Assembly: GCA_023227965.1 (NCBI GenBank)
Contig: JALOCA010000001.1
Location: forward strand, 3,490-67,489
DNA: 64,000 bases
Source: Lentimicrobiaceae bacterium
GTDB lineage: Bacteria; Bacteroidota; Bacteroidia; Bacteroidales; JALOCA01
Direction of reading: 5' to 3'
Part shown: piece by piece, positions 910 through 51,476 of the stretch
How the letters are laid out: every line of letters begins with the position of its first letter
Position numbering within the stretch: the stretch's first letter is position 1
Translations under genes and position numbers: made by a program
Notes under the pieces: generated by a model
Seen by the model: only the letters and a program-made list of their open reading frames with translations
Database searches by the model: none
Told to the model about the DNA's origin: nothing

Positions 910-3354
910 CTATTGGTTGTTGTTTGCCGAGCGCAAAAATTTGAGTTTTTCTTCCAGCGTTTTCACTTCTTCCTTGGCTTTATTTATTTTTTTGTCAAAT
1001 TCTTCGCGGAGAATGTTCGCATTTTTAGAATTGGCAAGAAAACCGATATTGTTTTCCCAAAGCATGATTTCTTCCTGCAACTTACTTATTTTAGTAGCTA
1101 AGAAATTGCGTTCTTTGCTGATGATTTTGCCTGCATCGGGAGAATTTTTTACTGATTCAAAGCGATTTTTATAATTAAAACTGAATGCTTCACCTCCGCT
1201 TACCTTAAGTTTATCAAAATGTTTGTTGATTACAGTACGAAATTCATTTTGTAGACGATCTTTTTCTGCTAAAGGAACATAGCCAATTTCTGTCCATTGA
1301 CGTTGAAAATTTTTGAGGCTCTCAAAGTCAACATTCCGGTTGTCGCTGGGAACAAATTCCTGTACCTGTTTAATAAGTGCTTCTTTTAATTGCAGGTTCT
1401 GCTGTTCCATTTGGGTAACATTGGAAAAAAATGTAGTTTTATTGTTGAAAAACTCATCACATGCAGCACGGAAACGTTTCCATATTTTTTCAGAATTCTT
1501 TCGCGAAACCGGACCTATTTTTTTCCATTCTTTTTGCATGTTAATGAATTCGCGTGTAGTTTTATTCCATTCTGTATTCGATTTAATGGCTTCTGCCTGC
1601 ATGCACAGGTCGAGTTTCCGATTGTAATTTTCTATTTGTTGGTCTTTCAGCTTACTGTAAAATTCTTTTTTTGCCGAGAAGAAGTTTTCAAGACTTGTAC
1701 GGAACCGCAACCAGATTTCGTTGTTTTGTTTGATGGATGCGGGACCTATTGTTTTCCATATTTTTAGCAATTCATTAACCTGGTTAGTTTTTTCCTGCCA
1801 GGATTTGATAGATTTTATTTCTTCTGAAATCAGGGCTTCTGCCTTTTCGCAAAGAAGGGTTTTTGCAACAAGGTTGTTTTGCAGCTCATCTTGCATATTG
1901 ATATAAAAATCGCGGCGCCGTTCGTTAATTTTGTCGGAAACGGTTTTGAATCTTTCCCAGATTTCGTCTTTCTTGTCCTGAGGAACGGGTCCGATTTCTT
2001 TCCACTCTTCATGAAATTTTTGCAACTGTTTGAACGACCTGGCAATTGACACCTCAAGGAGCAATTCTTCTACTTTTTCGCAAAGAGCAATTTTATTTTC
2101 AAGGTTCTTTTTCAGATCAAGGTCTTTCAGTTCTTTATTGATCTTTACTTTATCAAAAAATTTCTCAACCAGGAAATGGTAATTCTGCCATAGTCCGTTG
2201 ATTTCGTTTTTTGGAACCATCCCGATTTGTTTCCAACGATCCTGAAGCAGTCGGAATTCATCGTAGGTTTTTTTCAGGGTTTCTTCCGAGTTAACGAGTG
2301 TTTTCAGTTCTTCCAGAATCTGATTTTTGGCTTCAAGGTTCAGGAGTTTCTGTTTTTCAAACTCTTCGTTATATTTTGATTTTTTTTCTTTGTATATATT
2401 GAAAGCAGCGTTGAATTGTTCGTCGGTCATGTCATCGGCAACGAATTCTTCTTTTTTACCTCCTTCGGCTAAAAATCTTTCTAAACGCTGTTGTTTTTCT
2501 TCTTTGGATATTTTTAGAAATGCAACCTTGATAAGGGCTACCTGACTTTTTATCACATTAACATCTCCTTCCTGAACAAGTTTTTGTAAAGAATTCAGTA
2601 GCTGTTCACGATTATACTCTTCAAAATTTTCTTCTGCAATGCTGATAATTTCGGTTTCATCTAATTCTTCTTCTACAGCTATTTCAGCAATAGGCGAAAG
2701 AGAAGAAGCACTGGGGTCGAAAGTAAGGTCGGGAAGATGGATTTCAAGTTCTTTGTCTGCAAGCTCTGCTTCGACTTCTACATCTGGAACCACTTCGCTG
2801 CCAGTATTTGGCTCCGGCGAAATAGCTTCTGCTTCTTCAGTAATTTTTTCATTTATTTCGGATTCATTTTCGGCAGCATGCTTTGTGTGCATTTCTTCGC
2901 TTATGGCAATTTCAGGTGCTATTTCCTGTCCGGGAGTAGGTTCGGGGGGAATATTTTCTTGTTGAACGGTTTCTGCCAACTCGTCTTTAGTTTCGGGTTG
3001 GATTTCCTGGGCAGTTTCAGCAATAAACTCTGCAGAGGTTTCTTCGCTTATAGCAATTTCAGGTGCTATTTCCTGTTCGGGTGCAGATTCGGGTTGAATG
3101 GTTTCAAGCTGAGAAGTTTCTGCTAATTCTTCTTTAGTTTCGGATTGGATTTCCTGGGCAGTTTCAGCAACAAACTCTGCAGAGGTTTCTTCGCTTATAG
3201 CAATTTCAGGTGCTATTTCCTGTTCGGGCGCAGATTCGGGTTGAATGGTTTCAAGCTGAGAAGTTTCTGCTAATTCTTCTTTTGCTTCGGATTGGATTTC
3301 CTGGGTTGTTTCAGGTTCCTGGGGAGTGCGGGTCAGTTCGTCTTTTGTTTCCAT
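910..3354 (-). CDS. DUF349 domain-containing protein with acidic tandem-repeat N-terminus
   Basis: The C-terminal ~560 aa consist of repeated helical modules carrying the DUF349-type signature W..IG.......(I/L)W.RF......F (EIWERFKTVSDKINERRRDFY, EIWLRFRTSLENFFSAKKEFY, KIWKRFRAACDEFFNNK). The N-terminal ~200 aa are E/Q/P/T-rich repeats. Confidence 0.8.
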   Translation of the reverse strand: METKDELTRTPQEPETTQEIQSEAKEELAETSQLETIQPESAPEQEIAPEIAISEETSAEFVAETAQEIQSETKEELAETSQLETIQPESAPEQEIAPEIAISEETSAEFIAETAQEIQPETKDELAETVQQENIPPEPTPGQEIAPEIAISEEMHTKHAAENESEINEKITEEAEAISPEPNTGSEVVPDVEVEAELADKELEIHLPDLTFDPSASSLSPIAEIAVEEELDETEIISIAEENFEEYNREQLLNSLQKLVQEGDVNVIKSQVALIKVAFLKISKEEKQQRLERFLAEGGKKEEFVADDMTDEQFNAAFNIYKEKKSKYNEEFEKQKLLNLEAKNQILEELKTLVNSEETLKKTYDEFRLLQDRWKQIGMVPKNEINGLWQNYHFLVEKFFDKVKINKELKDLDLKKNLENKIALCEKVEELLLEVSIARSFKQLQKFHEEWKEIGPVPQDKKDEIWERFKTVSDKINERRRDFYINMQDELQNNLVAKTLLCEKAEALISEEIKSIKSWQEKTNQVNELLKIWKTIGPASIKQNNEIWLRFRTSLENFFSAKKEFYSKLKDQQIENYNRKLDLCMQAEAIKSNTEWNKTTREFINMQKEWKKIGPVSRKNSEKIWKRFRAACDEFFNNKTTFFSNVTQMEQQNLQLKEALIKQVQEFVPSDNRNVDFESLKNFQRQWTEIGYVPLAEKDRLQNEFRTVINKHFDKLKVSGGEAFSFNYKNRFESVKNSPDAGKIISKERNFLATKISKLQEEIMLWENNIGFLANSKNANILREEFDKKINKAKEEVKTLEEKLKFLRSANNNQ
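2890..3309 (-). repeat. 147-bp (49-codon) in-frame tandem repeat, ~3 copies, inside the DUF349 gene
   Basis: TGCTAATTCTTC... recurs at 3268 and 3121, and as the diverged TGCCAACTCGTC at 2974, an exact 147-bp spacing. The protein unit is ETSQLETIQPESAPEQEIAPEIAISEETSAEF(V/I)AETAQEIQ(S/P)ETK(E/D)ELA, present twice nearly identically plus a diverged third copy. Confidence 0.9.
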
Positions 3355-24435: not shown

Positions 24436-24480
24436 AGGCAGTTTGGGCGTTTTTTTTATTTATTGTGCCTTTGATGTTTC

Positions 24481-24956
24481 TTTAAATCCATTTTACATCA
24501 TCTTGGATATATTTAGCCTTATCTTGAATGGATTTTGGCTCATCTTGAATTCATTTTGAAACATTTTGAATAGGTTTTGGATGTTTATAAAGACATAGTG
24601 GCAGATTTCAAATAGGTTTTGGAATAAGTGAATAGATATTAAAACATTTCAAATTGATTTTAAAACTGTTCAAATAGGTTTTAAAATTTGTCAATTGATT
24701 TTAGAACTGTTCAAATTGATTTTGGAATTTGTCAATAGTATTTAGAACATTTTGAATAGATTTAAGATGATTTTGAATCAATTTTAGAACATCTGAATAG
24801 GTTTTGGATGTTCACAAAGACATAGTGGCAGATTTGAAATAGATTTTAGAACATTTTGAATGGATTTAGCTTTATCTTAAATGGATTTGTGCCCATTTTA
24901 AATGGATTTTGCCATTTTCTGAATAGAAATTATTTTTTTCTGAATCCGATATGGGA
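24481..24956. repeat. Degenerate tandem array, ~23 units of 19-21 bp (mean ~20.7 bp), consensus ~TTTTGAATAGATTTTAGAACA
   Basis: Hand-parsed unit starts are 24481, 24501, 24522, 24543, 24564, 24585, 24606, 24627, 24647, 24668, 24689, 24709, 24730, 24750, 24771, 24792, 24812, 24833, 24854, 24875, 24896, 24915 and 24936. Each unit has two T3-4 tracts about 10 bp apart. The track lists no ORF of 60 aa or more on either strand between 24436 and 25320. Confidence 0.85.
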
Positions 24957-25130
24957 TAGCCTTGTTGGGGATTGAAACCCTGAGAGGGATATTTTCATCA
25001 TTTTAAATCTGTTGCATGACATTTCAGTTGAAACTCATCATTCGTTTAAAAAAATCTATGTGTTGTAAAGAAAAAAAGAGACATTTTTAATCAAAAGAAT
25101 TCCTCGGGGCTTGCCCCAGGGTCATTCATT

Positions 25131-25328
25131 CTTACACAAAACTTAAACGTAAAGCTTTCGGTTTATAACATCAACGGACAATTAACAAATGTTTTGCTGG
25201 ATAAAATGATGGAAAAAGGAAATCATCGAATAAACTGGAATGCTACAGAAAAACTAATGCCAGGTGTCTATCTGTTAAAATTAGAAACCGGGAACACCGT
25301 AGAGACTACTAAAGTGATAGTTAAGTAA
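25131..25328 (+). pseudogene. Orphan 3' fragment of a T9SS cargo gene (C-terminal sorting domain only)
   Basis: It translates in frame to LTQNLNVKLSVYNINGQLTNVLLDKMMEKGNHRINWNATEKLMPGVYLLKLETGNTVETTKVIVK*, a near-copy of the last 65 aa of the 736-aa protein ending at 30671. It lacks the PNP strand, any upstream homology and a usable start codon. Confidence 0.75.
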
Positions 25329-25360
25329 ACCACTTCAAAAAAGAAAATAAAGTTGTAATT

Positions 25361-25422
25361 ATCCCAGATTTGTCATTTAAACTCTGATAATTTGATGTAC
25401 TTTCTAATGACGGATTTGGGAT
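25361..25422 (+). other. Long hairpin element (17-bp stem, 28-nt conserved loop), copy A; putative 3'-UTR structure or terminator
   Basis: ATCCCAGATTTGTCATT (25361-25377) pairs with AATGACGGATTTGGGAT (25406-25422). All 17 positions pair only if G-U wobbles are allowed, which means only in the + sense RNA. Confidence 0.5.
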
Positions 25423-26239
25423 TATTTGATTGAAAAGGAACCTCCACCGTGAGACCTTTTTTTTCAGTGGTAGAAAATACGTTTTTAGCAACTTAACAGA
25501 ATTGGTAGAAATGCCCTGAAACATAGATAGCGGAAGCTGAAAAACTGGGACAATAACTTAAACCCGGATCCGTATTTAAACTTTGATAATTTGAAGTATC
25601 GTATCCTTATGGTGTAATAATTGGAAGATATTGCCAATATGATGGCACAGAAAGTTCTTCAGGCGGCACTGCTTTTTCCCAATGTAGTAAAGATGGCCTC
25701 TAAACAAGGTGTTCTGAGAGCCAAGGAAGTGTACGACAATCTCAAGCATCGTTTCTCAGATAGTAAACTTTCAGAAATTATTACCAACAATACGGAAACC
25801 AAGTAGTTGAGAAGGATAGTTTTTTAATGGGTCAATTAATGGTAATGAGGCAGTGGGCTTGGCTCTTTACTTTTTACAATATAACCATCTTATTTTTATA
25901 ACTATCCTGTCTCATTTTATATCTTATAAAGTCTATGCCTGTAGGACAAAGTTTTTTCACTATGCCTGCTTTGCATCTTTAATACAAAACATTTGCCCTA
26001 ACAGGATAAATTCATCCGCCAGGCAAGTTAAAAACCTTCAGGGTAGGTATTGTTGGCCTGATTTACCTGTATTCATAATAACATGAAAAATTATTCACAA
26101 AATTTCATGCAATACACAACTGGTCTTAATACATATTAAATTTTAACTTTGTACTTGGATTTTTCTACCCTAGAAGATTAGAATAACTGCCATAATTTAT
26201 TACTATACACTGGTTAATAAAAACTTATAACTTTATTAT

Positions 26240-40544: not shown

Positions 40545-40968
40545 TTAATATGTATTTTATTAATTTTAGAATATTTTTTAAATCATTATTGATTAATTTT
40601 TATTTAAAAAATAATTTTTTCAGGTATTAAGCATTTTTTTATTAATTTTATTCCATCTGAATGAAAAAATATTTTGATGGTATCTATTATAAAAAATGAA
40701 ATACAAAATCATATAATTTCTTTTTCAACAAAGCTTTACAAAGTTAAATTTTCCATTCTGTATGCTGACATATGGAATACTGATTTTGTGGAAAAAACTT
40801 TAGGGTATCTTTCATCCCCATTGCCGAAATCACCGGATTTTGGCAAAAAACATCAACCATTTATACAACAAAGAAAGGGTAAATGCAGCCATTACAATAA
40901 ACGAAAAATTATAACACAAACTGGAGAAAAATTGGTTATATTTTACCCTACCTTATAAAACTGCTATA

Positions 40969-50883: not shown

Positions 50884-51138
50884 TGATACCTGTTGGTACC
50901 TTCTGATTTTGCCACGACCACTATTCTTGGTTGACCATGCGTATGCATGGCAAAAGACGATTAATTTTTTCAGAAGCAAACAATATAGGGTAAAAAACCC
51001 GTAAGAAAATAAGCTGAGATAGTTTTATATTTTCATACCGGATAAAATTACTTTTATCAATAAAAAGCCTGAGTTTTCAGATTGCTATATAAATTTTTGG
51101 TATGTATTTTTACTTTTTCGAAGAAATCTTTTTATATA

Positions 51139-51257
51139 ATAATCTCCGGCTTCACTAAGATAATTTCCATCATTTCGGAAATGATTTCCGTTATTTCGGA
51201 GGTAGTTTCCGGCTTTTCGGAAATAGCTTCCGCCACTTCGGAGATAATTTCCGCCAT
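51139..51257. repeat. Exactly phased 21-bp tandem array (5.5 units) of alternating TTCCG / CGGAA half-sites
   Basis: The units start at 51139, 51160, 51181, 51202, 51223 and 51244: ATAATCTCCGGCTTCACTAAG / ATAATTTCCATCATTTCGGAA / ATGATTTCCGTTATTTCGGAG / GTAGTTTCCGGCTTTTCGGAA / ATAGCTTCCGCCACTTCGGAG / ATAATTTCCGCCAT. This includes the perfect 15-bp palindrome CGGAAATGATTTCCG at 51175-51189. Confidence 0.9.
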
Positions 51258-51476
51258 AAAAATATTAAACATAAAAGATGGATAAATTCAAAAATATGAT
51301 TTTTGCTTATTCAAAAATAATCTTTTTGCCCATTTGTATAAACCAGGACTTTTGTAAAAAATGCCTGAAACTATATTTCTTGTTTACTTTTTTAAATTAA
51401 TTCTTGTTTATTCAAAATAAATTTTTTATACCTTTGTTTTAGAATTATTTTAGTAACCTTTAAACACAAAAAAACT

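Follow-up and report, generated by a model that had tools for sequence, protein, structure and literature searches.

The window, a stretch of 64,000 nucleotides of contig JALOCA010000001.1 from a Lentimicrobiaceae bacterium, contains a tandem array set in a chromosomal housekeeping context, with ruvX, def, a TPR lipoprotein gene, and a TPR-LuxR gene as neighbors. The array occupied 24480-24958 of the + strand and was resolved by a register scan into 23 head-to-tail units of 20-21 bp, 4 of the 23 being 20 bp long (window consensus TTTTGAATAGATTTTAGAACA; family core TCYTGAAT-NN-ATTT-NNNNNN-A). Tandem Repeats Finder (TRF) returned arrays of period 21, 41, and 62 across 24485-24910. The lag-21 autocorrelation of the array was 0.583, compared with a maximum over all lags of 0.404 in 1000 shuffles, and no other 479-bp stretch of the 64-kb window approached this signal. 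The Fourier power of AA/TT peaked at 10.35 bp (3.7 vs. a background maximum of 1.5) and was the strongest in the 64 kb. A preliminary description of this DNA had proposed approximately 23 head-to-tail units of ~21 bp with T-tracts recurring every ~10.35 bp; TRF, register scan, and autocorrelation agreed on the units, and the TRF and autocorrelation check that it had suggested, together with the Fourier peak, gave both periods, 21 bp and 10.35 bp.

A single array copy was detected within the 64-kb window (n = 1). A motif-scan match at 40553-40648 was AT-rich sequence only and held no array. An assembly artefact was rejected as the origin of the repeats: units as diverged as these would not collapse, and independent assemblies, including a long-read metagenome-assembled genome (MAG), contain homologous arrays. 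A Logan contig of the same organism (SRR8542065; L002), from an independent short-read assembly, ended 64 nt past the TPR gene, inside the first unit (window position ~24499). Such a break could arise because the array disrupts assembly, or because it differs between samples.

The array showed internal order. Units at 24606-24749 (+ strand) formed a central sub-family carrying TTCAAAT or TGTCAAT and were arranged as 41-bp dimers (TRF and register scan); according to TRF, the 41-bp dimer was repeated approximately three times at 24631-24763, which matches the repeated ~42-bp dimer noted previously. The same central units had been read as carrying the reverse complement of the outer ones. They were indeed distinct, but they represent a variant sub-family with a G-to-C change at unit position 5 and no true inversion. 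A block previously reported as duplicated at an offset of ~228 bp was recovered as a 74-nt segmental duplication on the + strand (copy A, 24551-24624; copy B, 24778-24851; 84% identity, offset 227 bp). The odd-unit core AAGACATAGTGGCAGA, which is kept across the whole family described below, was present in two + strand copies, at 24590-24605 and 24817-24832.

The array runs on into a conserved, hairpin-bearing tail at 24917-25098, which the preliminary description had overlooked. This + strand segment, comprising the terminal units and tail A, was delimited by alignment to relatives and is shorter than their tail of ~390 nt. A tail profile built from seven loci matched window positions 24918-25094 (nhmmer, E = 2e-25). 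Tail homology ended at ~25098, and tail B, when sought in the window, was absent. The tail hairpin lies at 24961-24989 (+ strand; arms CCTTGTTGGGG and CCCTGAGAGGG, loop ATTGAAA) and includes three G.U pairs, which can form on the + strand only; most relatives have a perfect stem of 16-19 bp.

The opposite end was less distinct. A leader or a set of degenerate first units at 24465-24479 (+ strand) was common to the window and to the C-type relatives L039 and L169, with 86% identity between window 24470-24505 and L039 5585-5620. The sharing is weak, and the leader could be made up of degenerate units: it matched the unit consensus at 11 of 21 positions. A weak candidate left terminal inverted repeat, GATGTTTCTTT, at 24473-24483 paired in the + strand fold with an equally weak right candidate, AAAGAGACAT, at 25076-25085 (+ strand; alignment and fold). 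The leader of L039 reads ATGTCTCTTT, and the tail of the relatives reads AAAGAGACAT. No target-site duplication or IS-type terminal inverted repeat was established, this 10-nt inverted repeat being the sole candidate.

The 1.8-kb stretch containing the array (24436-26239) had been described as free of genes. Neither a called gene nor an ORF longer than 77 aa was found within it, and the gene caller of the source assembly left the interval between the TPR and TPR-LuxR genes blank. The stretch does, however, hold the 3′ fragment of a type IX secretion system (T9SS) cargo gene at 25104-25328 (+ strand), limited to the C-terminal sorting domain (Pfam Por_Secre_tail, 31.7 bits with a cut-off of 27, E = 1.9e-7, profile positions 19-75 of 75). 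This fragment abuts the cut tail and is probably a deletion scar lying outside the element. A scan of the window region for sigma-70 promoters and terminators gave nothing above shuffle expectation. Farther downstream, a 25-nt direct repeat (ATTTAAACTYTGATAATTTGAWGTA) occurred at 25375-25399 and 25574-25598 (92% identity, 199 bp apart), its second copy lying ~40 nt upstream of a 55-aa ORF (25639-25806) without a Pfam match; it may be a duplicated promoter-like segment.

The window copy is old and decaying. Its units are more diverged than those of the relatives (per-position information), four of them have 20 bp, an 11-unit block is duplicated, and the tail is cut at ~25098 and fused to the gene fragment.

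The search of related genomes and metagenomes that the preliminary description had suggested recovered homologous arrays together with their tails. A first scan of GTDB genomes, with three units of TGAATNNNTTT, was too permissive and returned many unrelated 20/21-bp tandem repeats; among the matches listed, BLAST of the array against the fetched loci assigned only L039 and L072 to the family, both in the long-read Bacteroidales MAG 880eb77f. A specific two-unit pattern retrieved 11 contigs from JGI metagenomes, of which 10 belong to the family; the other (L168) was rejected as an unrelated repeat. In total, at least 13 loci with the array architecture were found, in one Bacteroidales MAG and in JGI metagenomes. 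The two-unit pattern had 0 matches among viral contigs, and blastn against plasmids and phages gave no match.

The family has strict 21-bp units (TCYTGAAT-NN-ATTT-NNNNNN-A) in a single fixed polarity, with 7-19 units per array. Per-position information defined an invariant 15-nt core (unit positions 1-8, 11-14, and 21) and variable positions 9-10 and 15-20, the variable hexamer taking 49 different forms among 125 units. The arrays contain one or two odd units (...GATGTTCCCGAAGACATAGTGGCAGA), a motif present twice in the window; the core AAGACATAGTGGCAGA occurred once or twice in tandem in L167 and L169-L176. The terminal units are fixed (TCCTGAATGGATTTTGCCCTT, TCCTGAATAGAAATTATTTTT, TTCTGAATTCC...) and are followed by a hairpin of 17-19 bp and then by the conserved tail. 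The window features that recurred in independent assemblies were the unit core, AAGACATAGTGGCAGA, the terminal units (TCCTGAATAGAAATTATTTTT/TTCTGAAT..), the hairpin, and ~180 nt of tail.

The relatives occupied three non-homologous types of intergenic locus, to which the window locus (after def/TPR) adds another; the flanking genes differ. Seven loci lay between the divergent genes rarD and metF/metH (L072, L166, L167, and L172-L175), three directly followed the stop codon of a T9SS cargo gene (L170, L171, and L176), and two adjoined a TonB-dependent receptor gene (L039 and L169). Two locus types coexisted in MAG 880eb77f (L039 and L072) and in each of the samples Ga0183100, Ga0268360, and Ga0160425. 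A LuxR-type gene as the partner of the array was rejected, given that the neighborhood varies and the relatives adjoin rarD, T9SS cargo, or TonB-receptor genes.

At the rarD/metF locus, arrays of 12, 16, 17, or 19 units were bounded by flanks 91-97% identical, with the first and last units kept. With flanks this similar and arrays ranging from 12 to 19 units, whole units are gained and lost quickly between near-identical strains. No empty site was recovered: contigs with RarD homologues (~65% identity) have other neighbors and have lost synteny, and synteny by way of relatives of the TPR protein gave no comparable site, the homologues being only ~40% identical. In L175, an IS256-like transposase gene stands immediately left of the array leader (L173/L175, oriented, ~1028-2254), and a matching IS end (..AAACTGTGTCAAAG..) cuts the right side of the array in L039 (5870-5915). 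The arrays lie in insertion-prone DNA.

Another reading is that the array is the remnant of a minus-strand gene for a heptad-repeat protein (xxK[S/C]IQD), intact in relatives and decayed in the window. In most arrays (12-19 units), one minus-strand frame indeed had only 0-1 stops and stayed open for 100-169 codons, and the variable unit positions coincided with whole codons in that frame. In most loci, however, the frame has no ATG, GTG, or TTG for its first 36-106 codons, and it is interrupted in L170, L171, and L176. The invariant codons show no synonymous variation, which indicates conservation at the DNA level; no flanking non-repeat coding domain was kept between loci; and the sole start-bearing ORF had no homologue among 5.8 billion proteins searched. 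In the window, each of the six frames of the array contained 7-17 stops. The earlier statement that the array is non-coding therefore stands, with all six window frames broken and no conserved start codon in any frame. Protein coding was rejected after six-frame tests, in-register frame tests, and the protein search were all negative, and a decayed protein gene is highly improbable.

The phasing of the T-tracts, taken as a recipe for intrinsically curved DNA in the preliminary description, raised the idea that the array was selected for its curvature, for example as an upstream activating or nucleoid-organizing bend. The 10.35-bp periodicity of AA/TT was the strongest in the window, and the modelled curvature of the array ranked in the top ~4% of windows of the same size (18 of 418 were higher). 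In a dinucleotide wedge model with parameters after Bolshoy et al. 1991, whose absolute values are approximate, the bend was nevertheless 9.3° per turn, compared with 7.7° for the background and 25° for a phased A6 control. Homologous arrays gave 6.5-9.3° per turn, the lowest of them falling below the window background, and the relatives have TCTTG rather than TTTTG, which leaves one short T-tract per unit only. Of the curved-DNA claim, the helical phasing at 10.35 bp was retained; the modelled curvature is only moderate, and strong curvature is neither predicted by this model nor conserved among the relatives. Selection for a bend has very little probability.

The same geometry could suit a protein-binding platform. 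The 21-bp unit would correspond to two helical turns with two half-sites of ~10.5 bp. A DNA-binding protein, for which a response regulator, a nucleoid protein, and a transposase or recombinase of the element itself are candidates, would line the helix on one face and thereby silence or insulate the locus or bring it into synapsis. The strict 21-bp period, with its 15-nt invariant core and free hexamer, agrees with this proposal, as do the AA/TT phasing at 10.35 bp, the partial dyad symmetry of the unit, and the odd unit kept across species. Against it, no regulator gene is conserved nearby, the neighbors differing at every locus, and there were neither rep or par genes nor a plasmid match. 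In the window copy, the loss of the strict period (four 20-bp units) and the low core information speak against current selection there. We consider such a platform unlikely.

An RNA was also considered, namely a + strand repeat transcript that would end at the tail hairpin and would function either through its structure or by sponging an RNA-binding factor. The + strand of 24465-25100 folded better than shuffles (z = -2.7), compared with z = 0.0 for the - strand, although this value is modest, comes from 20 shuffles only, and is what one would expect of a G+T-rich strand. The hairpins of the window, L170, and L176 vary by G.U pairs that only the + strand can form, but compensatory double changes were absent, the variants of L171 favor the other strand, and no U-tract directly follows the stem. 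In the window and at B-type loci, the genes upstream point into the array, and the repeats of BrickBuilt, a Porphyromonas element compared below, are transcribed (PMC4596501); nevertheless, Rfam gave no credible match on the window region or on L174. The evidence for an RNA is suggestive only, and a functional transcript seems very unlikely.

We favor, with moderate confidence, the interpretation that the window array is a decayed copy of a BrickBuilt-like dispersed non-coding minisatellite element. The element is composed of apparently degenerate leader units, an array of 21-bp units, and a conserved tail that includes a long hairpin, and it occupies several unrelated intergenic sites in Lentimicrobiaceae-like Bacteroidales. 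Like BrickBuilt, for which this has been proposed, it may spread as a mobile or recombining unit that is not autonomous; as no pair of filled and empty sites was found, we infer mobility from the dispersed distribution only. The arrays presumably evolve by slippage or unequal exchange, and concerted evolution or a binding factor would preserve the 15-nt core, leaving the hexamer free to drift. Arguments against this interpretation are the single copy in the 64 kb, the suspicious lack of stops in one minus-strand frame across arrays, and the strict 21-bp unit and invariant 15-nt core of the relatives, for which selection for a bound protein or an RNA motif would be an equally good explanation. 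Any present effect of the window copy is most likely incidental: downstream of the def/TPR operon, it amounts to a mildly curved, AT-rich spacer that includes a hairpin.

In the relatives, the tail leads into a variable gene site. Their ~390-nt tail ends with a perfect Bacteroidetes -7 box (TATATTTG) and a TTTG 16 nt upstream, which constitute a predicted promoter in tail B, and with a 9-bp hairpin (ATAACCGCC-ATAAT-GGTGGTTAT) at which homology between strains stops exactly. At the rarD/metF locus, this tail hairpin (GGTTAYA) is followed by a junction of the GTTAGC, GTTAAC, or GTTAAG type. The strain-specific genes past the junction comprised three small ORFs; a 204-aa protein; a 292-aa protein; a type IIG restriction-modification enzyme with a partner; and a PDC-S31 (DUF2971) defence candidate, two of the variable genes matching defence models. 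The variable blocks at this locus were located, in oriented coordinates, at 10860-12000 in L174, 7090-7940 in L172, 5680-6900 in L166, and 640-3790 in L173. Several of them are bracketed by their own complementary arms of 13-15 nt (at most 1 of 300 shuffles was as good in L174 and L172), and on their right side lies a conserved module (..TAATCGAG-CAGAC-GC-rich hairpin-AGAGCCTCTCACACC). No integrase or recombinase ORF was found within the 5-10 kb of relatives' flanks examined.

This organization resembles an integron in that a promoter-bearing platform precedes strain-variable, promoter-less-looking genes, some of them defence cassettes, and in that the junctions resemble GTTRRRY. Unlike integron attC sites, the complementary arms are separated by the gene and do not lie side by side at its 3′ end, and each site holds one cassette block. 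It is conceivable, but quite unlikely, that array and tail form the fixed 5′ platform of an undescribed Bacteroidales gene-cassette exchange site, in which a recombinase would use the 21-bp units as accessory binding sites and the window copy would be a dead platform. The window is without any part of the cassette site of the relatives. If the link to strain-variable defence cassettes is true, these elements would mark or drive a hotspot of gene exchange. Between tail A and tail B, L170 (3199-3876), L171 (1210-1893), and L176 (1274-1957; all oriented) encode a conserved helical protein of 225-227 aa, which had no Pfam or PADLOC match and is a possible element-encoded partner.

Other repeats were seen in the same material. 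An unrelated 21-bp array of ~6 units (TARTTTCCG-NNNN-TTCGGARA, each a small palindrome) lies at window 51139-51260, in the intergenic gap 50884-51476, and is overlapped by a 67-aa ORF with a TTG start and no Pfam match. With this second array, the source genome has more than one 21-bp minisatellite family. A 147-bp tandem repeat at window 2892-3314 (2.9 copies, 90% identity) is inside an 814-aa minus-strand ORF (910-3354) and is presumably a coding domain repeat. Two further 21-bp arrays, with units AAAATCTCCTGCTAACTCGTA and CCATTCACGGGTATCCGAAAT, were located at L072 5129-5394 (equivalent to L166 ~1201-1524 and L174 ~1387-1656) and L032 1-136; the L032 array is distinct and falls outside the family. 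The Bacteroidales MAG or lineage that carries L072 and L032 seems to favor strict 21-bp minisatellites. In the Chitinophagaceae MAG Flavipsychrobacter sp. SMAG_U15410, at least nine loci (L021, L051, L053, L054, L068, L088, L106, L112, and L117) hold strict 21-bp arrays of 11-19 units (CTGAATTCCTTTT-NNNNNN-AA). They have a core-plus-variable-hexamer design and no obvious common leader or tail, and the TGAAT..TTT that they share was forced by the search pattern and is no evidence of homology.

To our knowledge, minisatellite-bearing dispersed elements have barely been studied in bacteria. Such arrays also have practical consequences, as they break short-read assemblies and attract spurious ORF calls.

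Several known systems share parts of this layout. A CRISPR array was rejected, because the units abut and their sole variable part is 6 nt, with no unique spacers of ~25-40 nt. Plasmid iterons and the type Ib, II, and III partition centromeres (such as R1 parC, pSK41 parC, and F sopC) likewise consist of short, phased direct repeats, each with a conserved core next to freer positions; unlike these, the family described here has a chromosomal housekeeping context, no adjacent rep or par genes, several copies per genome, and no plasmid match. MITEPgRS/MITE464 of Porphyromonas gingivalis and other MITEs with internal repeats are likewise non-autonomous dispersed elements enclosing a tandem array (41-nt units in PgRS). 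PgRS, compared by description only, differs in unit length and sequence and in having repetitive flanks (PMC4596501).

The closest counterpart was BrickBuilt, a 23-nt minisatellite/MITE of P. gingivalis with a leader, a tail, and 19 intergenic copies (Klein et al. 2015, Mob DNA 6:18; PMC4596501). Its description includes conserved and variable unit positions, gain and loss of units between strains, truncation of the distal flanks, frequent proximity to PorSS-CTD genes, and promoter activity (PMC4596501). The preliminary description had known of no element class with such a structure in Bacteroidota, a statement that BrickBuilt contradicts (PMC4596501). BrickBuilt has been reported as restricted to Porphyromonas; both it and the family described here belong to the order Bacteroidales. 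Both consist of short head-to-tail units without spacers (23 nt and 21 nt, respectively), each with a conserved and a variable part, and both have distinct non-repetitive flanks with a tail kept between copies. Many intergenic copies at unrelated loci, whole-unit gain and loss between strains, flanks cut from their distal ends, predicted stem-loops, and the lack of an Rfam match are also common to the two, as are the frequent nearness of T9SS-CTD genes and a promoter-like sequence in the tail.

The unit sequences are nevertheless unrelated (AGACCATAGTATCCTCTCATATG in BrickBuilt vs. TCYTGAATNNATTTNNNNNNA here), AGAC(C)ATAGT being shared with the odd unit only. The odd unit (window 24590-24605 and 24817-24832) contains AGACATAGT, and the BrickBuilt unit starts with AGACCATAGT; this likeness may be due to chance (rough post hoc odds of ~1 in 100) or may go back to a common ancestor. 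The IS5-type 12-nt terminal repeats of BrickBuilt (GAGACCTTTGCA) are absent from the family described here, which differs also in its perfect tail hairpin of 17-19 bp and, in the relatives, in leading into a strain-variable gene cassette. With unit sequence and IS5-type ends both failing to match, the family is a BrickBuilt-like variant and not a member of BrickBuilt. A second, sequence-unrelated family with the BrickBuilt architecture suggests that this architecture is a recurrent solution in Bacteroidales rather than a curiosity, and the core-plus-variable-hexamer arrays of the Flavipsychrobacter MAG point in the same direction.
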